Positions 1 to 20,711 of a stretch of 32,000 nt of DNA are shown here, in pieces. The notes beneath the pieces were generated by a model. That model worked only from the letters and a program-made list of their open reading frames with translations, made no database searches and was not told the DNA's origin. The DNA is from Nitrososphaerota archaeon. Its GTDB lineage: Archaea; Thermoproteota; Nitrososphaeria_A; Caldarchaeales; Calditenuaceae. Positions within the stretch are counted from its first letter, which is position 1. Each line of letters opens with the position of its first letter. The stretch lies in assembly GCA_038741355.1 (NCBI GenBank), contig JAVYLC010000002.1, positions 1-32,000 of the forward strand, given 5' to 3'. Position numbers and translations under genes: made by a program.

Positions 1-29
1 CAGCGGGATGGGGGCTTAGAATACCAAAC

Positions 30-293
30 ATGTATAAACAGCTGTTCCATCTAGAGGCTAACAACGGTAGAGAGGTCACAATATCCCTGTGGGTTGAGGA
101 TGGAATACCATGTTTCAGCTATGAGGATGGGGAGCCTATGTTTATTCCATCTGGCCGTCTGCCACAGTATGGTAGGGGGGAGTGTTATTGTAGTAGATGC
201 TGTCAGACCTTCTCCAACAGGGATAAATGCCCCAACTACAACAGAGTATTAAGGAAAAAACCAAGAAGAAAGAGAAATAAGAGCGTCCCATAG
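30..293 (+). CDS. hypothetical small Cys-rich protein with strongly basic C-terminal tail
   Basis: 87-aa ATG ORF with a Cys cluster (CYCSRCC...C) followed by KKPRRKRNK. No family recognised. It lies next to a gene fragment, so it may itself be a remnant. Confidence 0.3.
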   Translation: MYKQLFHLEANNGREVTISLWVEDGIPCFSYEDGEPMFIPSGRLPQYGRGECYCSRCCQTFSNRDKCPNYNRVLRKKPRRKRNKSVP

Positions 294-314
294 TTTCTGA
301 CAGTAGATGGTTGA

Positions 315-689
315 CTAAGATGTTCTACCCTCAGACAGGAAGGCTTCAGACCTATACATTTTAAGACGATTAGAGGAGAGGTTCTCAGAATCTCAAGACT
401 TGTCTTTACAGGTGAAACCATAGATGCGCGTGAAGCCCTATCAATAGGTCTGGTCGACTATGTGGTTCCCAAAGAGGCTGTGAGAGACAAAGTCCTCGAA
501 GTAGCTGGGAAAATATCCCTCAATGGGCCGGGGGCTGTAAAATTCATGAGGAGATGGCTTGCCAGGAGCAGGTCTCAGAACATCCGAGAAGCCTTAAAAG
601 AGCTCTCCACTATGGCCGTGTCCGACGAAGCAGTGGAAGGCATGGGGGCGTTTATGGAGAAAAGGAAGCCTTCATGGGCATTGCAATAA
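315..689 (+). pseudogene. 3' remnant of an enoyl-CoA hydratase/isomerase (crotonase-fold) gene
   Basis: The frame is open only from 315, with an in-frame TGA at 312-314. It reads ...RISRLVFTGETIDAREALSIGLVDYVVPKEAV...VEGMGAFMEKRKPSW*, which is the C-terminal part of a crotonase (normally ~250-260 aa). The N-terminal half is absent. Confidence 0.6.
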
Positions 690-878
690 CAAGCATGCCA
701 GTTATTATGGTTGAGTTGCCGATTATCGTGAATGTGTGGCGTAATAAGTATTAGTTTCTGTCAAGCTTAGCCCACGATTTTTACCATGCTCGAAGCAACT
801 TAAGATAAGAGGGTTAGCAAGCGGCATGAGTGTATTGGAGAAGGTTGTTGGGGATTTATCATAGATCTGTCATTTTGC

Positions 879-941
879 ATCTCGATAACCGTAGGTTTCA
901 CTGCGGGACACGTTCTAGCTCAAGTCTTCGCACTAATGCCA
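879..941. repeat. left copy of a perfect 63-bp direct repeat (att-like)
   Basis: atctcgataaccgtaggtttcactgcgggacacgttctagctcaagtcttcgcactaatgcca is identical base for base to 5575-5637. Identity stops abruptly on both sides. Confidence 0.95.
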
Positions 942-1238
942 GACATCCGCTGTGAACACTATGCTTCATATGTCTGATTCCGGTCTTCCTACGATGAGCC
1001 CCACGACTTTTCTATTACGCTTGCATTACATGATATAACTACTTACTCGGATCCTACAACCATTAGAGTTCGAGGTAATATAGTTGTATGACTGGGTGTT
1101 GGAGAGCTAGACCTAGTATGACATGAGTATCAGAGATTCGTAATAGTTTATAGGGGTGTGGAGGTGTTCCGCAATATACTCCAAAATAGGCGGCTGAACA
1201 TGCTTAATTCGGACACTATTCAAAGATCAATCCAACCC

Positions 1239-1245
1239 TTATAAA
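1239..1245 (+). promoter_or_regulatory. TATA-like box for the 1275 gene
   Basis: TTATAAA is centred ~33 nt upstream of the ATG at 1275, which fits an archaeal short-leader or leaderless promoter geometry. Confidence 0.4.
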
Positions 1246-1274
1246 CAAGTTCGTAGATTAACATATGGAAGTTA

Positions 1275-1979
1275 ATGGATTCCTTGAAGAAAGAGTTTCT
1301 AGAGCTACTCGATAAGGATATAGAGTTCAGATACGCGGTGGCGGGATACCTTGGTTTATCTGAGATTCTGAAGAGGCTTGATGGTCTAGCCGAAGAGCAG
1401 GCTGAGCTTAGGGAGGAGCAGGTTAAGCTTGGAAAGGAGCAGGTCAGACTCGCTGAAGAGCTGGTTAGGTTTAGGGAGGAGCAGGTTAAGCTTGGAAAGG
1501 AGCAGGTCAGACTCGCTGAAGAGCTGGTTAGGCTTAGGCAGGATTTCAACAAGGCATTCAACCTCTTAAGCTTGAGGCTAAACAGGGTTGAGAGGACTCT
1601 TGAGAAGCTCACTGTAGACATTGAGGATGAGGCCAGATCTATCATAAGGTATAGGGTTAGGCAGGAGCTGGGGATAGACATAGAGCTTGGCTCCCTCACA
1701 CTACCAGACATAGAGCTTAACATTTATGGGGCATCCGATAACATTTGCATAGTTGGTGAAGCAACAGTTAGGGCTGGAGTAAAAATCATAGAAGGGCTCT
1801 TGAGAAAGATAGAAGACCTGAGGATAAGATACCCAGACAAGGTTAAGGGTGAGGTCATACCGGTAATTTACGCAAGTCTTCCCCTACCAGAACTGGTAGA
1901 GGAGGCTAGGAGGAGGGACGTATGGCTGCTCAAAGCAACACAAGACTTCTACAAACCCAAAACCCTAATCAAAAGGTGA
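1275..1979 (+). CDS. coiled-coil protein with C-terminal PD-(D/E)XK-like nuclease-fold domain (DUF3782 / PDDEXK_10-like archaeal family)
   Basis: 234-aa ATG ORF. The N-terminus is a heptad-rich coiled coil. The C-terminal core follows an alpha-beta-beta-beta-alpha-beta pattern, with an Asp in PDIELNIYG and the strand IVGEATVR. It is a paralog of the 2179..2649 product (LEIDIFC / VVGEVTTR). The family name is from memory, not searched. Confidence 0.7.
   Translation: MDSLKKEFLELLDKDIEFRYAVAGYLGLSEILKRLDGLAEEQAELREEQVKLGKEQVRLAEELVRFREEQVKLGKEQVRLAEELVRLRQDFNKAFNLLSLRLNRVERTLEKLTVDIEDEARSIIRYRVRQELGIDIELGSLTLPDIELNIYGASDNICIVGEATVRAGVKIIEGLLRKIEDLRIRYPDKVKGEVIPVIYASLPLPELVEEARRRDVWLLKATQDFYKPKTLIKR
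1408..1533 (+). repeat. in-frame 63-bp tandem duplication (2 units, 62/63 identical)
   Basis: Unit 1408-1470 is repeated at 1471-1533. It encodes REEQVKLGKEQVRLAEELVR[F/L] twice, 21 aa or three heptads per unit. A third unit starts (ttagg) and then diverges. Confidence 0.95.
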
Positions 1980-2178
1980 GAACACAACAAGGCAGCTAAA
2001 AAGCAAGACCATCACAAAATCAATATTACCCTACGGCGGGGCTGTCGGGCCGTGTTACTCCTATAAGCTTAATGCCTCTTCTATCTCCCTCCCCATTATC
2101 AGTCTGATGCCGTTTTTTCTGCCTCCATTCTAAGCTTCTCCACAATGTTTTCAGGAGCCGCTCCGACCGATAATATCG

Positions 2179-2649
2179 TCATGAACTGCTTCTTACCGTA
2201 TTTAGCGGTATCGTCGAAATACGGTAAGACGACGATACAGCTTCAACCCTTTCTAACAGCTTGGCTATCTCCCTGTTCATCTCCTCTTCGTCCCCGAGCC
2301 TTGTTGTAACCTCGCCTACCACGAGAGGGTTTTCGCAGAAGATGTCAATCTCCAGGACTTGGCCGTTCTTCACCACATATCCCCTGCCGACCCTGACGTC
2401 TTGATATCCAAGCTCTTCAAGGAGTACCTGTATGTATGCAGCTGCACGGATCTCGTAGGTGACCCCTAGGAGGGAAGCGAACTCCTCGAAACCCTCTACA
2501 ATCCTCTTCTTCAACTTCTCCCAAGCTTCCCTCAGACTCCTAACCTCTTCCTGTATCTTTTCGGATCTTTCTCTAAGTTTCCTGACATCTTCCCACGGTT
2601 TGTCCTGATCTCCTCTCATACTCCTAGCCTCCTTCCACGGCCGTTCCAA
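2179..2649 (-). CDS. paralogous coiled-coil/PD-(D/E)XK-like protein with a 3' end frameshifted by a 26-nt insertion (restored ORF would end at 2099)
   Basis: TTG start at 2649 with the minus-strand TATA-like CTTTATAG at 2673-2680. The product shares the LEIDIFCENPLVVGEVTTR core with the 1275 gene. After ...ERVEAVSS the frame is lost. The homologous C-terminus (KYGKKQFMTILSVGAAPENIVEKL...) continues in another frame down to 2099. Confidence 0.7.
   Translation of the reverse strand: MERPWKEARSMRGDQDKPWEDVRKLRERSEKIQEEVRSLREAWEKLKKRIVEGFEEFASLLGVTYEIRAAAYIQVLLEELGYQDVRVGRGYVVKNGQVLEIDIFCENPLVVGEVTTRLGDEEEMNREIAKLLERVEAVSSSYRISTIPLNTVRSSS
2191..2242. repeat. interleaved inverted repeats (A-B-A'-B', 13 nt each) created by a 26-nt inverted duplication
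   Basis: 2191-2203 tcttaccgtattt is the exact reverse complement of 2217-2229. 2204-2216 agcggtatcgtcg is the reverse complement of 2230-2242 at 12/13 positions. Segment 2204-2229 therefore equals the reverse complement of its own flanks at 25/26. Confidence 0.95.
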
Positions 2650-3238
2650 CTCTCCACCTGCAGTGGACAGGCCCTATAAAGAAAATTGTCTGCAACCACG
2701 GTAAAAACATTGCATACGTCAAGGCGGACAGCATTATTCTGGGTTTTTGTCAATTATGAAAGGTTGTGAGCCCGACGACCAGTGCTAGGGTTGGGATGGG
2801 GTTGATAGAATGCCGATATGAACCCTCATGACAGTCTTAATCCATATAGACTCTCCATAGATGGATGAGAGGGGTGGTGTGGCCGCCGAGAAGGAGTAGA
2901 GCAGCGGCTGTGAGGCTAAAGCTGAGAAGGCCTAGGAGGGAAGGAAAGCCTATGGAGCCTGATCGATGCTAAAGATTTGCAAGACATTCCGACTCCTAAC
3001 ATGTGTGACAGAAAAGGTGCGGGGCTTAATAAATCGATATGCATCTGATGAAATGATTATACTGAAGGAGAGACTCGAGGCTCTTGGATGATCACTCATT
3101 GGATCTCTTGAATCCGACACAAGTATAGAAGGCTAGCAAGGTTTTATAAAGCTTGGACGCTGCACCGACGTGAATTCAAAAGATAATGTTTAATTTCTTT
3201 TTGGGCATTAGAGGTCCTGCTAACACTCAGCTAACAGC

Positions 3239-4081
3239 TTATCGGCTTCTTTTGATGTAGTCTCTGACCTGTGCCTCGAATTTCTGGACTATCTGCTTTA
3301 GCCTCTCCGCCTCCTCATAAAGCTTAGCGTAGTCTACTTCTAAGTATCTGTGAACTATTATATTCCTCAGCGTTATGGCCTTAGCGAGCTCGTTTCCGAG
3401 CTCCGGGCTTATGACGCCATGCTCAGTGCATAGCCTCATGTAGTCTGCGTAGCTAAGAGCAGGCCCCCATCCCTTCGCGGACGCTATGTGCCTACACACA
3501 TCAGTGAGTGCCTCGACTATGAGCTGGCACCCTCTCTCCAGAAGCCTTCTGAGGACGGGTGATCGGGATACCTCTACCAAACCCTTAGACAGTACGTGTT
3601 CATCAAGGAAGCCCACCTCATCTTTCGCGAACCCCATCCTAGACATGACGACTTCGATGTTCACTTCTGATGGATTTGGAAGTGACAACCATTCTTCGAC
3701 ATTAACTCTTACGATCTCCGCATAGTATGGATAGCGTTCACTCACCTCTTTAACCAACTTCTCCAACAGGTTCCCTCTATCCACCAAGACTATGCCCTTA
3801 GTGACCACTTCCTTCTTTATCCTAATGTCGGCCCTATCTAGGTCGACTATGTCTATCAGGTCCGCGGGAACTTTCAGCCTTGTGGATATCTCCTCGACGA
3901 GACTGCATAGCACATCGTACTTATCGCCCGAGACAGTTACGGCCAAGTCGATGTCATGAGGAGCCCTACCCTCTCGGAGAGCTGACCCAAACACGGCGGC
4001 GAAGACCACATCTCCGAAACCCTTAACGACCTCTCTGATCTTCTCGACGAACTCATTGGAGACGCGTATAAGGTCCGTCAT
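3239..4081 (-). CDS. fused minimal nucleotidyltransferase (MNT) - HEPN (DUF86-type) protein
   Basis: 280-aa ATG ORF. The N-terminal half has the NTase signature FGSALREGRAPHDIDLAV (GS...DxD). The C-terminal half has the HEPN Rx4-6H motif in LRNIIVHRY within an all-helical region. Confidence 0.85.
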   Translation of the reverse strand: MTDLIRVSNEFVEKIREVVKGFGDVVFAAVFGSALREGRAPHDIDLAVTVSGDKYDVLCSLVEEISTRLKVPADLIDIVDLDRADIRIKKEVVTKGIVLVDRGNLLEKLVKEVSERYPYYAEIVRVNVEEWLSLPNPSEVNIEVVMSRMGFAKDEVGFLDEHVLSKGLVEVSRSPVLRRLLERGCQLIVEALTDVCRHIASAKGWGPALSYADYMRLCTEHGVISPELGNELAKAITLRNIIVHRYLEVDYAKLYEEAERLKQIVQKFEAQVRDYIKRSR

Positions 4082-4096
4082 CTCACCAGTCCAGCC

Positions 4097-4115
4097 TTGT
4101 CACTGACCGTGACAA
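4097..4115. promoter_or_regulatory. perfect 7-bp inverted repeat (TTGTCAC-N5-GTGACAA) between TATA-like box and start of the MNT-HEPN gene; candidate operator
   Basis: The palindrome lies 16 nt upstream of the ATG (4081). It is downstream of the minus-strand CTTATATATTAT at 4131-4142. Confidence 0.4.
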
Positions 4116-4363
4116 AAAGTAGTGTGGTCCATAATATATAAGCCTACTGGACTTAGCTTTAGGAAGCCGGCAACCATCAATATTTGAGCTGCTGAGACGA
4201 TCCAATGCTGTGGATAAGCTCTCACGCAGGATCAACATTAAAGTAACAACAGTCAATATAAACGATATAATGAATTTTAGTAATTAGTTTAGACTAAGAG
4301 CACGTTTTTAATACGTTCTCTATAAAAAAGGCCGTATTAAAAAACAAGTAGGGCTATAGCTGT

Positions 4364-5358
4364 ATGCCTAGCCTTCTAGCTACTCTTACGAAGTCGTCTC
4401 CGGAGAGTCCAGGCGCGAACTCTTCGGGCACTTCAGGGAATTCCAAGTAGTCTCCCCCCTCGGGCTGGCCCTCCTGTACAATAAGAGGTTGGTTGTCCTG
4501 TGGATGTGTCCCTCGCCATATTAGCTCTACCTCTTTGTAGCCGTTTGGGCTGAACCGGGGGTAGGTGTGGTTGTAACACAGTCAGTAGTCGAGGTCAGCT
4601 ACGGTCAACTTGGGCTAGCCTTGATGCGTGGAGGACTGTCGGCGGAGCAGGCGCTTAAAGCGTTACTAAGCGTCGACCCATTCCCAGAGGTTAGACAAGT
4701 TGCGATGCGGATAAGAATGGAGTCGTCGCAGCTCATACTGGTAGCAAATGTATACCTGAGGCCGGCCACATAGTCGGAGAAGGATTTAGTGTTCAGGCAA
4801 ACCTGATGAGGAGTAGTAGAGTCTGGGTGGAGATGACGGAAGCGTTTAAGAATAGTCGTGGGGCTCTGCATGAAAGGCTTTTAACGGCCCTCGAAGCGGC
4901 AGAAGCCGCTGGAGGAGACATAAGAGGGAGATAATCAGCCAGCATACTAGTTGTTAAAACCAGCTCTTCCGGCTCCATCTGGAGAGACAAAGTAATTGAT
5001 CTACGGGTAGAAGATCATCCTGAACCCTTAAAAGAACTGAGGAGGCTAGTTATACTTCATGAAGCCTATGAGTATGTTAATAGAGCTGATAGTTTGGTGG
5101 CGGAGGGAAGGATTGATGAAGCATTAGAAGAATATAGGAAAGCCTCGGAGCTTGCGCCTGACAAGATAGAGCTGAGATTCTGGCAGGCCTTAACCATGTA
5201 TCTACACGGAAGAAGGGGCCGAGGCTGAAGGAATCTTTAAGAAAGTATTCTCCGAGAATAGTGATTGGAAGATCATATTGACATCTCTCGCTAGGATAGG
5301 TTTGTTCAATGTAAAAGAAGAAGACGTGGAAAGAATACTAAAACCATATGAAAACTAG
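4364..5358 (+). pseudogene. DUF1028-family (Ntn-hydrolase-like) pseudogene
   Basis: Pieces in different frames match the family pattern: VAVWAEPGVGVVVTQS..LMRGGLSAEQALKALLSVDP..RQVA / NGVVAAHTGSKCIPEAGHIVGEGFSVQANLM...LLTALEAAEAAGGDIRGR*SASILVV / ...KKVFSENSDWKIILTSLARIGL. There are at least two frameshifts (~4700 and ~5205) and in-frame stops at 4522-4524 and 4932-4934. The 5' boundary (4364 versus ~4440-4534) is uncertain. Confidence 0.65.
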
Positions 5359-5574
5359 AACTCATTAATTCAAAGAATGTTGCTGTGAATTGCGGCAGTA
5401 CCAAGTGTATGTTCACCCACCTCTCAGTGGTGTCCCAATGAGGTGTATCGTTACAGCCACCATCCAGAGCTCGAGTGGCCTCCCGCAACAGCCAGCGTGG
5501 TCATACACAACGCTTGACTTCACTGGCTGCACAAAAAAGACTACCGCCATGTACATAATCCTCACCGAGTTTCT

Positions 5575-5637
5575 ATCTCGATAACCGTAGGTTTCACTGC
5601 GGGACACGTTCTAGCTCAAGTCTTCGCACTAATGCCA
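5575..5637. repeat. right copy of the perfect 63-bp direct repeat (att-like)
   Basis: Identical to 879-941. It covers the stop codon and the last two codons (..WH*) of the AEP-like gene, plus 54 nt of its 3' flank. Confidence 0.95.
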
Positions 5638-6501
5638 TGACCTGATCCTCCTGAACGTGTCTAGGATCTCTTGATCTAGTGGCTTATGCTTGCGCTTTCT
5701 CTTAACACGCCCGGTAATGTATGGTCCTATCGCTGTATAGGCTCTTTCAGCGATATTATCTCCCTCTCCCTCCTCATACTTGCGCCAAGCATGTGGAAAA
5801 TGCTTGTACTCGTTGGGGTCTGTCCAGTCTATGTGAAAGCTCTCCAGCTCTTCCGGTGGGATACAGACGGCCACCCTATCGACAGACCTGTGCAGGCTGA
5901 GTGGCGCAGTGAAAACTCTCTGCATATCGATCTTGTTCTCAACAACCACTCCTTCCTGGGGTTCTATCCTGCACGCTATATACTGGGTCACTGAATAGGC
6001 TACGTCTAGTGGATTAATCTTGCGAAAAAGCTCTGAGCTAAAGGCTTTTGGATGAATGTGAATGTGGGCGCCTCTCCCACTCCACTTGAAGAAAACCGAT
6101 CTTGTGACACCATGCTTCTCGAGCATATGTATGATCTCAATGGCCTTCTTGACAACCTTTCTCCAATCACAATCCTTAGAGTCTATATCCCACGTCGGTG
6201 CAGCGCCTATGATGTTCCCGCGGTCAGCTAAGTCGTCAGCTGATTTCAATCTCTCGTAGATGTTTGTAGTGGCGTAGTAAGCCCTCGGCCTCAAAGAGGA
6301 GAACCTATCCAATACCTCGATCACATCATTTTCGCTCCCTATCGTTAAAGGCCTACCCCGACTCCAATACCTGATCATGGGTCTAGTGCCATCGGATTGC
6401 TCCTCGCAGTGTACAGCAACCCATCTCCCGACACAGTACTCTGCGATCTCCCTCTTCACCTCGGGCCTCATGTAATGCCCTCTGACGTGTTCCCAGATCA
6501 T
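5629..6501 (-). CDS. minimal archaeo-eukaryotic primase (AEP) superfamily protein, PriS-like/primase-polymerase-like
   Basis: 290 aa. The three AEP motifs occur in order: PTWDIDSKD (DxD), KWSGRGAHIHIH (sGxGxH) and ENKIDMQRVFTAPLSLH. PriS-like N-terminal landmarks are present (REIAEY, RAYYATTNIYE). There is no zinc knuckle. The tail is basic (GRVKRKRKHKP). Its ATG overlaps the stop of the upstream ORF (ATGA). Confidence 0.75.
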   Translation of the reverse strand: MIWEHVRGHYMRPEVKREIAEYCVGRWVAVHCEEQSDGTRPMIRYWSRGRPLTIGSENDVIEVLDRFSSLRPRAYYATTNIYERLKSADDLADRGNIIGAAPTWDIDSKDCDWRKVVKKAIEIIHMLEKHGVTRSVFFKWSGRGAHIHIHPKAFSSELFRKINPLDVAYSVTQYIACRIEPQEGVVVENKIDMQRVFTAPLSLHRSVDRVAVCIPPEELESFHIDWTDPNEYKHFPHAWRKYEEGEGDNIAERAYTAIGPYITGRVKRKRKHKPLDQEILDTFRRIRSWH

Positions 6502-7292
6502 AGGATCTCTCCCGACCTCCTCTTCGCATCCATTATCCTCCTCACGACCTCCGGCGGAAGCTTATAATCTTCAACCCTTCTCTCAACCCTCCCCAAGACC
6601 ACTAGGCCGACCCCGGGCCTAATATCGACCTCGTGCAGGTATCTGCTGTGATTCGTCTGCCTCATCTTCTCAATTATTACAAACCTTCTCAGCTCTCCAC
6701 CTCTGAGAACTCTTCTGAACCTGATTATGCCATCCGCTATGTGCTCTATTCCCCACCCGAAGCTCTCAGCCGTCGTTATCGCATACTGACTCACGGCTAG
6801 TATCGTGGAGTCCCACTTCGATAAGACCTTCTTGAGGTAATAGCTGTATCTCCTCGCCATCGCGGGTCTGTCTAGCCAGAAGGCGGATAGTGAATCTATA
6901 GCGATCCTAGCCCTACCATATCCCAGCTCCTTCTTAGCCTCGATAATCTTCTCGACGAGCGCCTCCATATCAAGCGACTTAAGGCTCCACTTATCCTCCC
7001 TCCCCATCAAGGCGTCGATTATTATCAGCTTCCTTTCATTCGCGGCCCTCTCGAAGCCCATTCCAAACTGCGAGGCCTGTTTCACGATTGACTCCCTGCT
7101 CTCCTCCGTCGTGATGTAAATGCATTTATCCCCATCCAGTATGCCCTGGTTGATGAAGTGTATCGAGAAAATAGTCTTGCCGCAGCCCGGCTCTCCCGTT
7201 ACAGCGACTAAGAAGCCTTCAGGTACCCCACCCTCGATGAGGTCATCAATCCCCCTCACGCCTGTTCTAAGCCTCTTCACCTCGGACTCCAA
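6498..7292 (-). CDS. single-domain KaiC/RadA-paralog (aRadC-like) RecA-fold ATPase
   Basis: 264 aa with RTGVRGIDDLIEGGVPEG, Walker A GEPGCGKT and a Walker B-like RIAIDSLS. The ORF starts at a TTG (7292). A GTG at 7280 fits the ATTAATCATATT TATA-like box better. Confidence 0.85.
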   Translation of the reverse strand: MESEVKRLRTGVRGIDDLIEGGVPEGFLVAVTGEPGCGKTIFSIHFINQGILDGDKCIYITTEESRESIVKQASQFGMGFERAANERKLIIIDALMGREDKWSLKSLDMEALVEKIIEAKKELGYGRARIAIDSLSAFWLDRPAMARRYSYYLKKVLSKWDSTILAVSQYAITTAESFGWGIEHIADGIIRFRRVLRGGELRRFVIIEKMRQTNHSRYLHEVDIRPGVGLVVLGRVERRVEDYKLPPEVVRRIMDAKRRSGEIL

Positions 7293-7576
7293 CCCAATAT
7301 GATTAATCCCTGCTCAGAGATAAGCTGTTCACCCCAGAGCTGACCCCGCTGAGAACGATTTAGCAGGGTCTTCAAGCTCTTTGGCCAGCGAGGAAAGCCA
7401 TGTAAACCTCGTCTGTCGAGTGTTGGTATACTCCCATTAACACCATGCCTATTTCTACCGAGTGGGTGAGAGTTTGGAAATGGCGGCCATATATCGCACT
7501 CCCCCGATAGTCGGATGAGTGTTGTAGGACAGAGAGTAATCTTTCTTACACTTTTAATAGCTGGTTTTCCTTCTGC

Positions 7577-7996
7577 CTATTTTGATCTTCTCCGCATTCC
7601 TGGGAGTTTTAGCGGGATGAACCTGAGCCCCAGGCTGTTGGCGAGGCTCTGGACCGCGTAGTCGTCTGTGACGACATATACTTCTTCAAACTTTTTTGAT
7701 AGCTCTAGGGCGGTGGCGAGTATCGACTCGTCTGTCTCTGATAACTTCGAGCCTCTCCTATGAGAGGCCTCTCTGACGGCTGTTAAAGCCTTGGTGGAGG
7801 GTTCTATCGTTTTGATGATGCCCGCGGCCAGCATAGCTTCTAGCCGGGCTACCTGTATCTCTCCATAAACCACCTCCCTAACCGCGAGATCCGTAGTATA
7901 GAGGTTTGCTCCCCCTCTGAAGCCCAGTAGAAGGGCGGCCGTGTCCAATACGTAGGCTCTCTTAGAGTCCGAGCCTCCTCCTGATCCTTTTCTCAA
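7577..7996 (-). CDS. PIN-domain endoribonuclease, Nob1-like, without zinc ribbon
   Basis: 139 aa with acidic PIN residues in YVLDTAA, AVREV, SETDESILA and VVTDDYAVQSLANSLGL; the last motif is typical of archaeal Nob1. No CxxC pairs follow. The ORF overlaps the nadK 3' end by 35 nt. Confidence 0.65.
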   Translation of the reverse strand: MRKGSGGGSDSKRAYVLDTAALLLGFRGGANLYTTDLAVREVVYGEIQVARLEAMLAAGIIKTIEPSTKALTAVREASHRRGSKLSETDESILATALELSKKFEEVYVVTDDYAVQSLANSLGLRFIPLKLPGMRRRSK

Positions 7997-8756
7997 GGAG
8001 CGTGACCCCTGAGGTTCTGACCAGCACGGTGCTGTGGCGAGACTTGGAGACTGTCAGCTCACCGCTTTCAAACTCGCGCCTGATTAATCCGTCAATCACC
8101 ACTGAGAAGGGCCCCCTTCTCCCCCTCATAAAAATCATCCTGTGCGCCGAGAATACCATTGGCCGGATATTCGTGATAGGGGCAACTGGCGTGGCTATGA
8201 TTAGCTCAAGCTCTTCGTCCACTAGCGGCCCACCTAGAGAGGTGTTGTAGCCTGTAGATCCGACGGGTGTTGAGAAGACCATGCCGTCCGCGACTACGTT
8301 TTGGAGCCTGAGCCTCTCCACCTCTAGGTCAAACTCGACGACCTTACCCGGCGAGGAGTTTGAGACATAGGCCTCGTTGACTGCGTCCGATATTGGCTCG
8401 CCGTCAACTGATATGTCGAGTCTCATGAACCTTTCCAGACTATAGTTTCCCAGGAGCAGGGATCTAACTGCGCGGTTTGCCTCATCGGGTGTAGCGTCCG
8501 AGAGGTATCCTCCTCGTCCATAGGAGATCGCTAGCACTGGGGTTTCAGGCTCCTCCAGTGAGTGTATTGAAGCAAGTATGGTGCCGTCGCCTCCGAGCAC
8601 TATTAGATAGTCGCAGCTCAGGGGCCCCTCCACTCCCCTCGCGCTCACTTCATAGAGATCATGTTCGCACCCATGCTCTTCCAAGATCTTCTTGAGCTCC
8701 GCCGCCTTACTCTCCGCCCCCATCTTGTCTTTTCTGTACACAACTATAACATACAA
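7962..8756 (-). CDS. nadK: NAD(+) kinase
   Basis: 264 aa with the VLGGDGTIL motif, NE..V, and the TPVGSTGYNTSLGGP signature. Confidence 0.9.
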   Translation of the reverse strand: MYVIVVYRKDKMGAESKAAELKKILEEHGCEHDLYEVSARGVEGPLSCDYLIVLGGDGTILASIHSLEEPETPVLAISYGRGGYLSDATPDEANRAVRSLLLGNYSLERFMRLDISVDGEPISDAVNEAYVSNSSPGKVVEFDLEVERLRLQNVVADGMVFSTPVGSTGYNTSLGGPLVDEELELIIATPVAPITNIRPMVFSAHRMIFMRGRRGPFSVVIDGLIRREFESGELTVSKSRHSTVLVRTSGVTLLEKRIRRRLGL

Positions 8757-8844
8757 CCCATTCTCGTTCTCGGTAATACTCAGCCAAGTGATAAAGCCAT
8801 CGCCCTGGGGAAGCTGGGCACCGGAACCCAGTCTGTCCCAATTT

Positions 8845-9978
8845 CTATGGCTCTGTAACCATTCCGGTCTTTTTGAGGAGACTATATGCTCCCGTGGGCG
8901 TGAGGGGGGCGTGGTGTAGTATGGTGTATCTCTCTGGGCGTAGGTTTTTACACTCTAGGAGGGCCTTTAGAGCCACCTCCGAAGAAACCTTGATGTCCGT
9001 AATGCTTGTAGGTGCTCCGGCCCGCCCTAAGTAGCTCCTCAGCTCCTGGAATGTCAGCTCGGACCCCTGCTCAGGTAGGGAATCAAAGTCCTCATACCTG
9101 GCAGCCATCAATATAGCGCCTATCCCCACCTGCTCGCCGTGCAGCCCACTCCCCTCACCCACCAAGTCGAGATAGTGTGAGAAGAGGTGTTCAGCCCCTG
9201 AGCACGGCCTCGAGGACTCCGCGAGGGTCATGGCTAGTCCACACTTCACGGCTGCAGAGGCGAGGAGTAGGACATTGCTACAACCCGCATCGATGAATCT
9301 CCTAATATCGAGGAGGGCGGATGCGGTGAGGTTGAACGTTGTTTTGCAGAAGTATTCGTCCTTGACGAGGTGGCCGAGCAGCCAGTCTCTCAAGGATGTT
9401 GTTTTGGCGAGTATGTCGGCGCATCCTGAGGAGATGAGCCGTCTGGGGGAGAGCTTAATCAGCGGCTCTGTTATCACTACTGTCTGGGGCGGTGTAGCCA
9501 TCAGACTAGTCCTCCTAGAGCCGAGCAGGATTGATGCGACCGGTGAGGATATGCCGTCGTGGGAGATGGTTGTGGGTATTGAGATGAAGGGTATGCCCAG
9601 CCTGTGAGCCGCGTATTTGCAGACATCTATAACCGTGCCCCCGCCAACTGCAACAGCGAGCGAGCAGTTTGAGGCGACCCTCTCAAGCTCTGAGACCGTC
9701 CCTATATCCGCCCTCTCAACCTCAAACACTACTGAGCCATAGCCATGCTTGGAGAAGTGTGCTTTAACGAGCTCGCCGGCAATTGATCGCGTTTTATGCC
9801 CTGTCACAACTGCTACGGGGCCCCGGGGATCTATCCCACTCGTCACAAGGTCCAGAAGCTCGCCCAGTGAGTCGCCGAAAAGGATCTGGCGGGTTGCCAC
9901 CTTATGCACCCTGCCGCAGCTGCAGTCGAACTTCTCTCCGAGCCTGATCTCTGGGACAGTCAGCAGGGAGGGTGGCAT
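8845..9978 (-). CDS. egsA: sn-glycerol-1-phosphate dehydrogenase (iron-ADH/DHQS-like fold)
   Basis: 377 aa with AVGGGTVIDVCKYAA, IPFISIPTTISHDGISSP and a downstream His pair (GAEHLFSH). This is the archaeal G1PDH pattern. Confidence 0.8.
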   Translation of the reverse strand: MPPSLLTVPEIRLGEKFDCSCGRVHKVATRQILFGDSLGELLDLVTSGIDPRGPVAVVTGHKTRSIAGELVKAHFSKHGYGSVVFEVERADIGTVSELERVASNCSLAVAVGGGTVIDVCKYAAHRLGIPFISIPTTISHDGISSPVASILLGSRRTSLMATPPQTVVITEPLIKLSPRRLISSGCADILAKTTSLRDWLLGHLVKDEYFCKTTFNLTASALLDIRRFIDAGCSNVLLLASAAVKCGLAMTLAESSRPCSGAEHLFSHYLDLVGEGSGLHGEQVGIGAILMAARYEDFDSLPEQGSELTFQELRSYLGRAGAPTSITDIKVSSEVALKALLECKNLRPERYTILHHAPLTPTGAYSLLKKTGMVTEP

Positions 9979-10052
9979 GGAGGAGCTAAAGCTTACTATT
10001 TATGCGGCTTAAAAATTATAGCTCTAAGACCACCATCCACAATACGGGCTTC

Positions 10053-10072
10053 ACGAGATATTACGAGATATT
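10053..10072. repeat. perfect tandem decamer ACGAGATATT x2 abutting the speB TATA-like box
   Basis: 10053-10062 equals 10063-10072. TTTATAT follows at 10078-10084, and the ATG at 10106 lies ~25 nt further downstream. Confidence 0.8.
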
Positions 10073-10105
10073 AATCATTTATATCCGTTGCGACAGTCTC
10101 AATAC

Positions 10106-11071
10106 ATGTCCAAGAACTCGGGCAAAGCTGGGCGGTTCTATCCGGTAGACTCCCTCAAATCTCCCCGCTTCACTGGCCCCTACACTTTTGCGAGGCTGCC
10201 ATACACACGGGACTTGGAGGGGGTTGATGCGCTCTTCATAGGGGTCCCCTTCGATGGGGGTGTTGTCTTTAGGCCTGGTGCGAGGTTCGGTCCAGCGGCA
10301 GTTAGGCAGGCATCGCTACTTCTACGCCTCTACAACCCATACCTCAAGGTCAAGCCCTTCGACGTTCTAAACGTGGCCGACTACGGCGACATAAGCACCG
10401 TGCCCAGCAGCATAGAGTCTACATATCAGAGCATATCGCGGGAGCTGAGCGCGATCCACGAGAGAAGAATAACGCCACTAGTATGTGGTGGGGACCACTC
10501 GATAACACTCCCACTTCTTAGAGAGGCATCAAAAGCCTATGGGAGGCTAGCGCTAATCCATGTTGACGCTCATCTAGACATGGTTGAACAGCACTTCTCC
10601 CAGAAATACACACACGGAACGGTTTTCAGGAGGGCCTTCGAGGAGGGCCTCGTAGACCCTCACAGGTCGGTTCATGTAGGGATTAGAGGGAGCCTCTTCT
10701 CGGAGGACGAGATAAGCGAGACAGAGTCCCTCGGCTTCAAAGTCATAACCATGGAGACCATCGAGGAGAGGGGGGTAGTGGGCGTCAGCAGCGAGATTAA
10801 GAGGAGGGTTGGCGGGGGAGCTGTGTACCTCTCATTCGATATAGACGCCTGCGACCCATCATGTGCACCTGGAACTGGGACGCCGGAGGTGGGTGGCCTC
10901 TCTTCCCGAGAAGCGTTAAGGCTCCTGTACGGCCTCGCCGGCCTGGAGTTTGTAGGCTTCGACTTGGTAGAGATCGCCCCACCTTACGATCACGGGGAGA
11001 TAACGGCATTCCTAGCCGCCAACATAATCTATGAATTCCTATCCCTCAAAGCCTTAAGAAAGACGCGATAA
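10106..11071 (+). CDS. speB: agmatinase / ureohydrolase family (possibly N1-aminopropylagmatine ureohydrolase)
   Basis: Arginase-fold motifs GGDHSIT, HVDAHLD and SFDIDACDP. The ORF is open from a TTG at 10088, but the ATG at 10106 matches the TATA spacing. Confidence 0.85.
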   Translation: MSKNSGKAGRFYPVDSLKSPRFTGPYTFARLPYTRDLEGVDALFIGVPFDGGVVFRPGARFGPAAVRQASLLLRLYNPYLKVKPFDVLNVADYGDISTVPSSIESTYQSISRELSAIHERRITPLVCGGDHSITLPLLREASKAYGRLALIHVDAHLDMVEQHFSQKYTHGTVFRRAFEEGLVDPHRSVHVGIRGSLFSEDEISETESLGFKVITMETIEERGVVGVSSEIKRRVGGGAVYLSFDIDACDPSCAPGTGTPEVGGLSSREALRLLYGLAGLEFVGFDLVEIAPPYDHGEITAFLAANIIYEFLSLKALRKTR

Positions 11072-11091
11072 AAAAATGGTTATGCTGGGTG

Positions 11092-12573
11092 CTAATAGCT
11101 AAGTTTAAGGATGCTCTTCCACTCCTTCGTTAGCTCTGTCGTCGCAGTTACCTCGTCAACATTTCCCGCGACATACTCGGTAATCCACTTGGCTATCGAG
11201 TCCTCTAGCATCGGGTTCTCAGGCACGTAGTTTCTGAACCCTGCCTTAAGCAGGGAATCTAGGAAGACCTCCTTGAATATTCCAGGATACTTCGGTGCTA
11301 GAGACTCTATCACGCTCTTCCTCCCTGGGAAGGAGGAAGCAACATTCCACTGCTTCACAGCGGACTCCGGCAGGACTAGGAACTGTGTGAACAGCCAAGC
11401 CTCGCGCGGATTCTTAGAGTATCTGCTAACACCTATCTGCCAAGTACCATCGATCGGGACTCCCGGTGGTGGGGAAACCCAGATTTTTCCAGCGGTCTCG
11501 GGATAGTTCTGCGCCCCCTTCTCTATGAAGTCTATGAAGGTTGAGGCCCATGAGCCAGCCCACATGGCAGCCTTTCCCCTGCCTAAGAGCTCCATGCACT
11601 CAGACCACTCCGTCTGTGTAGCGTTCGGAACATAGTTACAGAGCTCTTTGAATAATCTCGTTATCTTGATGCCCATGTCTGTTATCTCTGGGTCGAAGGC
11701 TATTCGGCCATCTTGGGTGAAGAGGTCACCCCATGGCTCAACCGGCTGACCCAGCTTAGAGACCCCCTCTGGCGACCTCCTCCACTGGGCAAAAAGCCAG
11801 GCGTACTCCCAGTGGATCGTGTGTGTCCTCATAGCCATTATGGTGTTTCCAGCCTCGACTGGCGAGTCGGGGTTGTATCTCTTGGTGAAGAAGCGCCCTA
11901 TGGCAAATACGTCTTCAAGAGTCTTGGGGACAACTAGGCTGGTGGGAATCTTCTTAGGGTCAAGCCCTAGGTCTGGAGCAATTGACTGAAGGTCGGAGAG
12001 GTTCCTGTCAATCCACTTGCTATACATGTCCTTTATCCTGGAGTCTTCCCAGAGGTCTCTCCTGTAAAACATGGCCATTACGTTGGCTGTGATTACATAC
12101 CCAATCCTCTTCCCCTCCCAGTGCATATATCGCCGATCAATGGTCTCGAGGAAGTCACCATACTCCTTGAATATCTCCGCATCAGGGTATCGCGATCTGA
12201 GCTCATCTATTGGGTAGCAGTGAGGGCCGAAGGCGCCAGTATAAATGCAGTCCCACATATAGACATCATACTCGCCCGCTCTTGTTGCGAAGTCGTGGAG
12301 CTGTCTATCCCTGCCCGTCTCCCAGTCGAAGAGAAGGAGCTCAACCTCAATGTTCGGATACTTGATCTTGAAGTCCTCCTCTGCGACGGCCTTCATCCCA
12401 GGGGCTGAGTGTGCGATAGCGACGACCCTAATCTTCTTCTGGGTCGGCTGGAGCGAGCTCCAAGCATATAGGCCCGCGCCAGCAGCCACAGCGGCGATTG
12501 CTACGCCTATCCCAACCTTAGCCGCGGTGGAGATGGCTTCTCGCCTGGTGATAAGGTCTTTCAGGTCGACCAT
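11092..12573 (-). CDS. ABC transporter substrate-binding protein (CUT1 sugar type), membrane-anchored
   Basis: 493 aa. The N-terminus has TRREAIS plus a hydrophobic anchor, and the body is a large periplasmic-binding-protein-like domain. It is divergent from two sugar permease genes. Confidence 0.8.
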   Translation of the reverse strand: MVDLKDLITRREAISTAAKVGIGVAIAAVAAGAGLYAWSSLQPTQKKIRVVAIAHSAPGMKAVAEEDFKIKYPNIEVELLLFDWETGRDRQLHDFATRAGEYDVYMWDCIYTGAFGPHCYPIDELRSRYPDAEIFKEYGDFLETIDRRYMHWEGKRIGYVITANVMAMFYRRDLWEDSRIKDMYSKWIDRNLSDLQSIAPDLGLDPKKIPTSLVVPKTLEDVFAIGRFFTKRYNPDSPVEAGNTIMAMRTHTIHWEYAWLFAQWRRSPEGVSKLGQPVEPWGDLFTQDGRIAFDPEITDMGIKITRLFKELCNYVPNATQTEWSECMELLGRGKAAMWAGSWASTFIDFIEKGAQNYPETAGKIWVSPPPGVPIDGTWQIGVSRYSKNPREAWLFTQFLVLPESAVKQWNVASSFPGRKSVIESLAPKYPGIFKEVFLDSLLKAGFRNYVPENPMLEDSIAKWITEYVAGNVDEVTATTELTKEWKSILKLSY

Positions 12574-12681
12574 AGCTTTTCATATGTATTCGGTTGATGT
12601 TTTGATATAAGCTTTTCCACGAGTCTTTTACACTGAGTGCAATTGATTTTTATATTCCACACCAAGTTTTAATGTGCGGAA

Positions 12682-13581
12682 TTGGGGAGCAGGAGTTCAG
12701 GTCTTCTATTCATAGCTCCGGCGACGGTTTACTTGGTGGCTTTAGTCATCTATCCGACAGTCTATCTCTACTACATGATCTTCCACTCCCTCAACCCTCT
12801 CTTCGACGTCACTCCCAGGTTTGTAGGCCTACAAAACTTCTATACACTGCTGCAAGACTTGGACGCATCATACGCCATTCTAGCCATGCTCCTGTTGACG
12901 GGGATCACCGTCCCTGTCCAACTTGCTCTCGGATCGCTCTTAGCGCTGCTGTTTACCTCGCCACACCTGAGGGGAAGGCTAGTCCTACGATCCATTATGC
13001 TGATACCGTTGAGCATACCTGCCGTGATAGTTGGTCTAAACTGGAAGATGATCTTCTTCACATACGGGCCGTTGAACACCTTCCTCAGCTCAGTCGGTCT
13101 CGAGCCGCAGCCATGGCTTAGCGCGCCCTTCGGCCACACTTTCAACACATTCTTCGTCCTAGCAGTTTTAGATATATGGCAGTGGACCCCCTTTGTGGCC
13201 CTAGCTGTTGCCGCCGGCATAGAGAGTATACCACCCTATATCCAAGAAGCTGCGGCCTTGGACGGCGCCACACGTCTCCAAATGATCCGGCATATAGTTT
13301 TTCCACTGAGCAAAACTGTCATAATCATCGTGTTATTGTTCAGGCTCATTGATTCTTTAAAGATCTTTGACATAATCTACATGCTGACTTTCGGCGGGCC
13401 TGGAAACCTAACAACCACTCTACCATTCTACATCTATAAGGTTGGCTTCACCCTGACTGCCGCTAGGGCGGATATCGGATATGCCTCTCTTCTAGCAGTA
13501 ATTCTACTCCTGATCGCTACTTTCCTCGTCCTGTTTGTGTTGACGCGTGTCCTCAACGTTAAACGAGTGGTGTGGGAGTGA
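12682..13581 (+). CDS. ABC sugar transporter permease (MalF/UgpA-like)
   Basis: 299 aa, multi-TM, with the EAA-type loop IQEAAALDGATRLQMIRHIVFP. Confidence 0.9.
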   Translation: MGSRSSGLLFIAPATVYLVALVIYPTVYLYYMIFHSLNPLFDVTPRFVGLQNFYTLLQDLDASYAILAMLLLTGITVPVQLALGSLLALLFTSPHLRGRLVLRSIMLIPLSIPAVIVGLNWKMIFFTYGPLNTFLSSVGLEPQPWLSAPFGHTFNTFFVLAVLDIWQWTPFVALAVAAGIESIPPYIQEAAALDGATRLQMIRHIVFPLSKTVIIIVLLFRLIDSLKIFDIIYMLTFGGPGNLTTTLPFYIYKVGFTLTAARADIGYASLLAVILLLIATFLVLFVLTRVLNVKRVVWE

Positions 13582-19277: not shown

Positions 19278-19832
19278 TTGAGCGTTGAGAGAATAAACTC
19301 GGTTCTGAAGGAGATTGAGCGGCGTGTCAATAGTGGATACTGGTTTCCCATAATAGGGCCTGTGAAGGGAGAGCTACTCTATGCCTTTACCCTCCTGGCC
19401 CGGCCGCTTCGTGTCCTCGAGCTGGGAACGGGTATCGGATACTCCGGGCTACAGATTGCGCGGGCGCTGAGGCCGGGAGCGAGGATAGTGACAGTAGATG
19501 CGGACAAGGAGAACGCGGATGAGGCTCTAGCCAACTTTAGGAGGGCTGGGGTAGAGGATCTATTAACGGTGGTTGTGGGTGAGGCAGGTAGATTCCTTCA
19601 GGGTGACAACTCCCTCTATGATATGATTTTCGTGGACATCGAGAAGTCGCGCTACCTCGACCTGCTGGAAGACTGTATTTCAAGGCTCAGACCAAATGGG
19701 ATACTAGTCGCTGATAACGTGCTACGGCCAGAGCTCCGGAAATTTCGTCAGGCCATTGTGACACATCCACAACTAGCCTCTGCAATAATTCATATTGAGG
19801 ACGGCGTCTCACTGAGCGTTAAGAAGGCCTAA
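19278..19832 (+). CDS. class I SAM-dependent O-methyltransferase (family 3, YrrM/CCoAOMT-like)
   Basis: 184 aa with SAM motif I VLELGTGIGYSG, IVTVD and DMIFVD. TTG start 13 nt after the previous gene. Confidence 0.75.
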   Translation: MSVERINSVLKEIERRVNSGYWFPIIGPVKGELLYAFTLLARPLRVLELGTGIGYSGLQIARALRPGARIVTVDADKENADEALANFRRAGVEDLLTVVVGEAGRFLQGDNSLYDMIFVDIEKSRYLDLLEDCISRLRPNGILVADNVLRPELRKFRQAIVTHPQLASAIIHIEDGVSLSVKKA

Positions 19833-20711
19833 AACCGACTCGATCATAACTGCTAGAAAAAGGATGGCTAGGTAGGGGCTGGTGAACTTGAATAGAATCC
19901 AAGCGCTCCTTTGGCTCGGTTTCCGGAGAACCGTTATGGAGAGAGCTAAGAGAGAGGCTCCAATTATCGCCGCTGTGGCCAAGTAGGGCCCCCTGAGGAA
20001 TCTCCCGTCGAATACTGGCAAGAGGAGTGAGGAGATAAGCAACAATATGACCGTCCCCGCTATGCATCTGATAGCAATCCTCTCAGGGACGACTGTGGGT
20101 AGCATCGGTATCCCAGCCCTGATGTAGTCTTCCTTGTACTTTAGGGCAAGGCTCCAGACATGGCTTGGAATCCACAGAATCACCAGTAGGCCGAGAATTA
20201 ACGCGGAGATGTCTATGAAACCGCTTGCGCCGGCGTATCCAACTAGGACTGGGGCGGCGCCCGCGGGGCTTCCGAGTATGATGTTCCAGGCCGTCCTTCG
20301 CTTCGTCAGGACCACGTAGACTAGGATGTAGTCGAGTATTCCTAGAAGCATGGCGAGGAGGGCTGTGAGGTTGAGTAGGAGGGCTGAGATCGCTAGGGAA
20401 GCGGATATGAGCACGAGGCCGAGTATCAATGCTTTTTCAGGTGGTTGAATCAGTCCCCTCGGCAGGGGCCTTCTCCTTGTCCTCTCCATAAGCGCATCTA
20501 CATCCCTCTCAAGATAGTTTGCTACACTCTCGGCACCCGCCGATCCACACGCCAAACCCAGGGCCGAGGCCAATAGTGTCACAGGATTTATGGAATCTCT
20601 CAAACCTGCGAGATACCCTGCTAGGCCTACAAAGACTAGGAGCCACCACACATTAGGCTTTGTTAGGCTGAAATATGTGTGGATTGTCTCTGTGATCGTT
20701 AGAGTCCTCAA
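19809..20711 (-). CDS. ctaB: protoheme IX farnesyltransferase (heme O synthase), UbiA family
   Basis: 300 aa, polytopic, with the signature NYLERDVDALMERTRRRPLP. Confidence 0.85.
   Translation of the reverse strand: MRTLTITETIHTYFSLTKPNVWWLLVFVGLAGYLAGLRDSINPVTLLASALGLACGSAGAESVANYLERDVDALMERTRRRPLPRGLIQPPEKALILGLVLISASLAISALLLNLTALLAMLLGILDYILVYVVLTKRRTAWNIILGSPAGAAPVLVGYAGASGFIDISALILGLLVILWIPSHVWSLALKYKEDYIRAGIPMLPTVVPERIAIRCIAGTVILLLISSLLLPVFDGRFLRGPYLATAAIIGASLLALSITVLRKPSQRSAWILFKFTSPYLAILFLAVMIESVLGLLNAQ

Follow-up and report, generated by a model that had tools for sequence, protein, structure and literature searches.

We have analysed the first 32,000 nucleotides of contig JAVYLC010000002.1 of a Nitrososphaerota archaeon (assembly GCA_038741355.1), a stretch that we call the window; the genome that holds it is referred to as G000, and its sister species as G002. 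Close to the left end of the window, a 4633-bp islet (942-5574) is bracketed by two perfect copies of a 63-bp sequence, here named S, and is followed on its right by a pair of genes for a KaiC-type ATPase and an AEP-type primase-polymerase (Prim-Pol). The arrangement resembles a scar left behind when recombination inserted DNA into a rearrangement hotspot of this hot-spring archaeon. Integrase-less, repeat-flanked islets at hotspots are already known; what is added here is that the repeat can be traced to the tail of an imported gene. As for the way in which S was duplicated, we lean towards the insertion of a non-autonomous DNA circle by one recombination between two copies of S, an explanation that we regard as quite possible, if short of probable.

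The two copies of S, at 879-941 and 5575-5637, are direct repeats lying 4696 bp apart and are identical at 63/63 positions. Beyond S on the left the next five bases agree at 3/5, and on the right the identity ends at once, so that the first-pass annotation, which had described a perfect and abruptly bounded repeat, was accurate on this point. It also stated that the right copy contains the last two codons of the AEP gene (W and H) and its stop, and this applies to the minus-strand gene at 5629-6501. The overlap is thus real, but the description of the repeat as the 3' end of the AEP gene plus its flank has to be changed, since S is the 21-codon tail of a peptidase A24 gene. A search of the whole assembly (1.65 Mb in 76 contigs) for further copies, which the same annotation had proposed, returned these two only and thereby sets aside a dispersed repeat family; S is also absent from the JGI metagenome contig collection. 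About eight other within-contig pairs of exact direct repeats (at least 25 bp long and spaced 0.3-40 kb) occur genome-wide. A third, degenerate copy of S beyond the KaiC gene and a short core copy at 7400-7545 were both looked for, and neither was found. There is no tRNA gene in the window, positions 1-8000 match no Rfam family, and the folding of S is unremarkable (z = -0.09 and -0.23), with nothing resembling the attC-type hairpin of an integron.

Read on the plus strand, S encodes in frame the C-terminal 21 residues of a peptidase A24, ISITVGFTAGHVLAQVFALMP, and ends exactly at the last sense codon. A counterpart is found in G061, a genome of the same order belonging to a different family (f3, genus g12), where a 247-amino acid peptidase A24 gene, with the C-terminus ...ISITAGFIFYVLVGDVLAIILALMP before its stop, overlaps tail-to-tail with an AEP gene. 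A nucleotide high-scoring segment pair between the window and G061 (5601-6633, 82.9% identity) crosses without a break from the AEP gene into the right copy of S, of which it covers 37 bases, the remaining 26 bases of S align to G061 after a 12-base gap, and the C-terminal ...ALMP plus stop is common to the S reading and the G061 peptidase. A peptidase tail, ...CWITPGLPLLISIT..., adjoins the AEP gene in all g12 genomes examined; the KaiC/AEP pair is present in 11 of 14 genomes of this genus, and in four the match extends to the same point inside S. The convergent peptidase/AEP layout, in which a carbohydrate kinase gene follows the peptidase, also occurs in three metagenome contigs (L057-L059), and Pfam domains PF01478 and PF06847 are recorded on the peptidase homologue of L057. 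At the C-terminus of the AEP protein, G000 and G061 share ...SWH, other relatives end in ...F(K/R)KF(G/E)L, and metagenome contig L061 ends in ...FRKFNLYY.

The two copies of S differ in what follows them on the plus strand. The right copy runs straight into the peptidase stop TGA (5638-5640) and the AEP gene, as in donor-type genomes; in the left copy the same 21 in-frame codons of the peptidase tail are followed by islet DNA, which replaces the stop codon. Because the segment shared with G061 is unbroken, and because four g12 genomes have the same contiguity, the right junction between S and the AEP gene is the ancestral, donor-type one, and the left copy is the one that was displaced. According to these alignments, S is what remains of a peptidase gene, the body of the gene being absent. 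No convincing peptidase similarity lies to the left of either copy. Left of the left copy, a fixed-register comparison gave 15/30 and 26/60 identities (p about 0.005), but nothing emerged when gaps were allowed, the register of the conserved CW motif does not agree and the identity would fall from 82% to 45%, and this candidate was rejected. The peptidase A24 and kinase genes that G000 itself possesses are located elsewhere in its genome, on contigs C27 (39% identical) and C37, respectively.

The gene next to S (5629-6501, minus strand) codes for a protein of 290 amino acids. The product has no Pfam match at threshold and an E-value of 0.014 to TIGR00335; the residues of the three AEP motifs DxD, sGxGxH and hD..R (D105/D107, S141-G142-x-G144-x-H146 and D192/R195) are invariant in nine homologues, and an AlphaFold (AF2) model (predicted local distance difference test score 85) is nearest to CAPP Prim-Pol, LigD-Pol, Prim-PolC and PriS (Foldseek: 7nqe, E = 3.4e-7). 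We consider the AEP assignment sound. The stop codon of a gene for a single-domain KaiC-type ATPase of 264 amino acids (6498-7292, minus strand; TIGR03881, 1.9e-108) overlaps the AEP start, and the peptidase tail, the AEP gene, the KaiC gene and 114 bases upstream of the latter together form a horizontally acquired fragment of ~1.8 kb on the minus strand (5575-7406), which we call fragment F.

Over its nucleotide sequence, F is 82.7% identical to G061, 78.6% to the sister species and 77.5% to metagenome contig L057. To put these values on a scale, the syntenic flanks of G000 and G002 are 84-90% identical, the genes beside the KaiC/AEP pair in G061 match G000 at 66-69% only, and the core G1P dehydrogenase of G000 is 88% identical to that of G002 and 34-36% identical to those of families f2, f3 and f4 (G028, G037 and G038). 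In the sister species the pair is found at another locus (G002:C1:780188-781842), and the two genes beside it there lie on contig C76 of G000, with a separate HEPN+MNT pair between them. These identities show that the KaiC-AEP pair is foreign in G000 and was taken up from a g12-type donor. This changes the role of the AEP gene, which had been regarded as the target of the insertion: S does adjoin it, but the gene is itself an import.

The pair occupies at least three different contexts among near relatives (window 5629-7292, G002, L057 and L070). Since it is found at differing loci, and is closer to another family than to the sister species, the better-supported view is that it moves horizontally as a compact unit; such movement bears on any attempt to assign the pair a cellular function. 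No direct repeats surround the pair in G002 or L057, and defined ends of F could not be demonstrated, the homology stopping at different points in these two. In two other metagenome contigs, L060 (JGI Ga0080004_1097828) and L061 (JGI Ga0105158_1001113), the AEP gene stands without a KaiC partner, and its 3' flank is conserved between them; both carry divergent MNT-HEPN fusions within 1-4 kb of the AEP gene. In two g12 genomes (L070 8046-8838, the same as G061:C8, and G055:C12:29231-30591), the KaiC gene is split by an insert of 0.8-1.4 kb, which may be an intein or a homing-endonuclease-type insertion. The AEP gene of G061 also carries a frameshift.

The islet between the two copies of S has a GC content of 47.3%, compared to 52.1% for the genome, which places it at the 5.5th percentile of 4.6-kb windows; its tetranucleotide distance is unremarkable (15th percentile), and intact open reading frames (ORFs) span about 44% of it. 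Its description in the first-pass annotation as AT-rich, sparsely coded and populated by accessory or decaying genes is borne out, the shift in composition being slight. The clearest case of decay is a DUF1028 pseudogene with a TPR-like tail (4525-5358, plus strand), which is disabled by two frameshifts and in-frame stops and is 85-86% identical in amino acids, and 79-81% in nucleotides, to intact genes of G037 (family f3) and G038 (family f4). The match is confined to the gene, the flanks not being shared, and a search of 18 other genomes from its own family returned no DUF1028 homologue. This is clearly a horizontal gene import that was followed by decay. Since the families that hold the intact genes are those whose core G1P dehydrogenase is so distant from that of G000, at least part of the islet is, on this comparison, foreign.

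The other components of the islet point in different directions. An intact MNT-HEPN (MntA-HepT) fusion of 280 amino acids (3239-4081, minus strand) has its nearest relative (81% amino acid identity; 83% nucleotide identity over 3231-4211) behind a Rad50 operon on an ENA contig of another organism. A fragment of about 60 codons (2757-2937, minus strand) belongs to a 499-amino acid membrane hydrolase/glycosyltransferase gene that is intact in the sister species (76% nucleotide identity) and has no intact copy in G000. An intact coiled-coil protein of 234 amino acids (1275-1979, plus strand) is a member of a multicopy family of G000, with copies on contigs C30, C51, C6, C1 and C12. A protein of 156 amino acids (2179-2649, minus strand) from the same loose family is 56% identical to the copy on C61 and is short at both ends compared to the 214-amino acid copy on C31. 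These two had been called paralogs, a description that has to be changed: direct comparison by BLASTP gives E = 0.37, and they are connected only through other copies. The idea that islet genes are native to this locus was also dropped, the match to the coiled-coil gene in G004 lying at another locus that is syntenic with C12.

We further asked whether the loci of coiled-coil paralogues have the same repeat pattern; only the one on C31 has a repeat, and it is made of insertion-sequence ends. There, a 265-bp direct repeat (C31:16032-16296 and 19598-19862, 93% identical) surrounds 3.6 kb with a transposase fragment, a coiled-coil family gene and a truncated flippase-like gene, and the repeats look like two insertion-sequence ends. 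Inside the 234-amino acid gene of the islet, window 1386-1532 holds repeats with a period of 21 bases, among them a 63-bp tandem duplication that is near-perfect, and Logan k=31 contigs break at this point.

The surroundings of the islet have been rebuilt as well. The window begins with the right end (1-388) of a multicopy element of at least 1.6 kb, present in at least 15 copies, many of them at contig ends; it encodes an 87-amino acid zinc-ribbon ORF (30-293), its fullest copy lies at G000 C12:42700-44320, and the copy examined has no evident long ORF. This element truncates the next gene, an enoyl-CoA hydratase gene, of which it removed the first 153 codons; the C-terminal 100 codons (387-689, plus strand) are native flank, and homology to the sister species runs on to 768. 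The following 110 bases up to the left copy of S (769-878) have no match in 120 relatives. To the right of F there are 132 bases (7407-7538) before the native flank restarts, at 7539 when compared with G006 or at 7584 when compared with G002, with a PIN gene at 7577-7996. Relative to the sister species it is thus the whole of 769-7583 that has been replaced, beyond the islet alone, and G002 has at this locus 2.2 kb with three unrelated genes. Other members of the genus retain G1PDH-NADK-PIN, synteny ends at PIN in all of them, and past this gene they yielded no match to what G000 or G002 carry at the locus. Exact-protein look-ups of the left-flank genes in other assemblies gave no records. The locus, where the hydratase and PIN genes have their 3' ends, is a rearrangement hotspot, rebuilt independently in the sister species.

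In such a hotspot, S might also have been doubled by serial local rearrangement without any circle, F having been present twice in tandem, or having landed twice, and the left copy having been overwritten save for its first 63 bases. Both copies of S start where the homology to the donor ends, as if both were left ends of F; the locus is unstable, as judged from the replacement of 769-7583 and the truncation of a neighbour gene by the multicopy element; and native-type and foreign-type fragments are patched together in the islet, all of which would be in keeping with such a history. Yet 942-5574 holds no trace of a second AEP gene, KaiC gene or upstream region, F lacks demonstrated defined ends (they differ in G002 and L057), and several independent events would be required to leave two copies that are identical at 63/63 positions. 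We therefore consider serial rearrangement rather doubtful.

Insertion of a circle, the explanation that we prefer, would proceed as follows. S arrived as the end of the ~1.8-kb KaiC/Prim-Pol fragment from a g12-type donor, an origin that the alignments establish. A single reciprocal recombination, that is, a Campbell-type insertion of a circle, would then have placed the islet and one S between the chromosomal S and the DNA on its left, the exchange being carried out either by host homologous recombination or by a recombinase supplied from elsewhere. The islet would in that case be a non-autonomous passenger consisting of already decayed and shuffled DNA rather than a self-sufficient element, and recombination between both copies of S could still excise a circle of 4696 bp. 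A single exchange is favoured because S is perfect, unique to two places and abruptly bounded; because it begins inside a gene and stops exactly at its last sense codon, the usual shape of the identity block of an att site at a gene 3' end; and because 63 bp falls in the length range of archaeal att sites. The two copies of S have no differences, compared to at least four disabling lesions in the DUF1028 pseudogene, and the duplication is therefore younger than the decay.

Several observations weigh against the insertion of a circle, or at least against a conventional integrated element. Six-frame searches with PF00589 and PF16795 found no match anywhere in the 89%-complete G000 genome, the islet included, which agrees with the earlier failure to see an integrase or transposase by eye. 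Scans with Pfam, NCBIfam, PHROG and PADLOC gave no mobile-element hallmark genes in the islet, and over the modelled circle junction no ORF is rebuilt, such as that of a split SSV-type integrase. The shift in composition is modest, and the islet is a mosaic of pieces with separate histories, not one coherent element. An empty site with a single copy, which the first-pass annotation had proposed to look for in relatives, was not found among the genomes available, where the sister species is different throughout 769-7583, no closer genome exists and the nearest AEP homologue is 74% identical; nor has a free circle been seen. The presence of a 63-base peptidase tail on a circle of junk DNA has no explanation. 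Finally, both copies of S end on the left at the very base where the peptidase homology stops; this shared end suits a fixed crossover point, but rival routes would account for it too.

Of the features expected of an att-flanked element, abrupt direct repeats and overlap with the 3' end of a gene are present, and an integrase and a coherent gene set are missing. The ORFs of the islet have no recombinase match in Pfam, NCBIfam or PHROG, an integron cassette finds no support from PF00589 either, and the 3' flank of the AEP gene in G002 has no similarity to the modelled empty site. The initial proposal of a remnant of an integrated element, or of an insertion mediated by recombination, survives in part: an att-like origin remains the most economical single-step account of the duplicated S, but what lies between the repeats is a mosaic and not a coherent element that has decayed. 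With regard to the genome itself, the tyrosine recombinase family PF00589, including XerA-type enzymes, has no match in G000 at E <= 1, and all 14 control genomes are positive.

The shared left boundary of the two S copies could also mean that the whole of 879-7406 moved as one composite unit, which would have passed from one family of Caldarchaeales-type archaea to another. An element residing in the peptidase tail of the donor would have been excised imprecisely together with the Prim-Pol/KaiC genes and would have entered the present genome at a secondary site through a recombinase not recognizable as a tyrosine integrase, with the crossover at the left edge of S; in a variant of this explanation, a tightly bounded Prim-Pol/KaiC cassette would itself be mobile. 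This would account for the common boundary, for the lack of a third S and for the missing peptidase body left of 879. Sources of f3 type are indicated for F as well as for the DUF1028 pseudogene, at about 80-83% nucleotide identity, the whole stretch is missing from this locus in the sister species, and the variant can draw on the presence of the pair in at least three contexts among near relatives. Against a composite unit speak the lack of a recombinase, the lack of a core-like repeat at the right end near 7406-7539, the own-family character of parts of the islet, and the fact that none of the g12 genomes examined has an islet-like element in its peptidase tail. Taken together, the composite unit, its unrecognized recombinase and the mobile cassette are in our view unlikely.

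It may also be that the incoming islet DNA carried no S, and that illegitimate end-joining or gap-filling at nicks 63 bases apart copied S as a long target duplication. Neither a prior S in the incoming DNA nor a recombinase would then be needed, and the outcome would likewise be a perfect and abruptly bounded repeat. However, S with its 63 bases is far longer than the duplications known from transposons or casposons, the terminal inverted repeats (at 942/5574) and the transposase domain that would be expected of such elements are missing, and one of the nicks would have to fall exactly at the end of the peptidase homology. For these reasons we judge a target duplication of this kind to be very unlikely.

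With a repeat so close to a contig end, the reliability of the assembly needs to be considered. Contig ends of this assembly share exactly 127 bases (C60:1-127 is identical to window 1-127, and C76:1-127 to C12:127-1), and its 100-N scaffold gaps have 127-base duplicates on both sides; the assembler word of 127 bases is longer than the 63-bp S, and both repeat junctions must therefore have sequence-read backing. A contig of a second metagenome-assembled genome (GCA_042137655.1) corresponds to window 3328-12784, with 100% identity over 9457 bp, and spans the junction from the islet through S into the AEP gene. Logan k=31 contigs of SRR21619488 end exactly 30 bases into S, whether S is approached from the AEP gene or from the islet, which is expected if the repeat has two contexts. 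The window begins at the end of contig C2, leaving 878 bases of left flank visible, and the left junction (878|879...941|942) is supported by this one assembly. An assembly or binning artefact, in which two haplotypes, or a free circle, were joined to the chromosome, could draw on this single source for the left junction and on the position of the left S, since the contig end 878 bases away belongs to a multicopy repeat. As the overlap of the assembler exceeds S in length, the right junction is identical in the second genome, and the k=31 contigs act as they do for a genuine two-context repeat, we hold such an artefact to be highly improbable.

On present evidence, the repeat itself is an ordinary kind of scar. 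If it does mark a real integration, the region would represent an integrase-less att-flanked islet in a little-studied lineage of hot-spring archaea, with an attachment sequence that is traceable to a foreign gene tail which came in with a primase-ATPase cassette. It would then provide a datable case of imported DNA making new recombination sites, and of debris and toxin-antitoxin genes collecting at hotspots.

Among known systems, integrase-less islets flanked by att sites have been described in bacteria as cis-mobilizable elements (CIMEs) of the ICESt family of Streptococcus thermophilus, which are thought to be mobilized only by a recombinase acting in trans. The islet resembles them in being bracketed by att-type repeats and in having no recombination genes of its own. 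CIMEs derive from identified integrative and conjugative elements that share the att site, whereas the islet has no known partner element or recombinase, and its host is an archaeon. In lambda gal/bio specialized transduction, imprecise excision captures neighbouring host genes, and by analogy a comparable event would account for a mobile unit with the Prim-Pol/KaiC genes beside an internal att copy; here, in contrast, phage and integrase are both missing, the far end lacks a second att, and the likeness is purely inferential. The one clearly intact cargo gene of the islet has both domains of the type VII toxin-antitoxin system MntA-HepT (NF047752 / NF047751); unlike in that system, the domains are fused in one 280-amino acid polypeptide, and the pair is not tied to a repeat mechanism.

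Fast-evolving genes of narrow spread, toxin-antitoxin modules and debris at a break in synteny are shared with the archaeal "dark matter" islands, which are not defined by a perfect long direct repeat (PMC4158269). The closest comparison is with the att-flanked elements of archaea, both the cryptic ones of Thaumarchaeota and the crenarchaeal ones of the SSV and pNOB8 types (PMC6563490). The islet departs from these in being a mosaic of debris without integrase, replication, capsid or conjugation genes, in having a "target" gene tail that is itself imported, and in having no known empty site. It agrees with them in that a repeat of tens of base pairs, crenarchaeal att sites being 29-69 bp long, surrounds foreign-looking DNA (PMC6563490). 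Of 68 thaumarchaeal elements, 14 integrate in the 3'-distal parts of protein genes, and one that is illustrated brings its own stop codon (PMC6563490); in the same manner, S spans the end of a coding sequence, and the insert alters the stop codon that is used.

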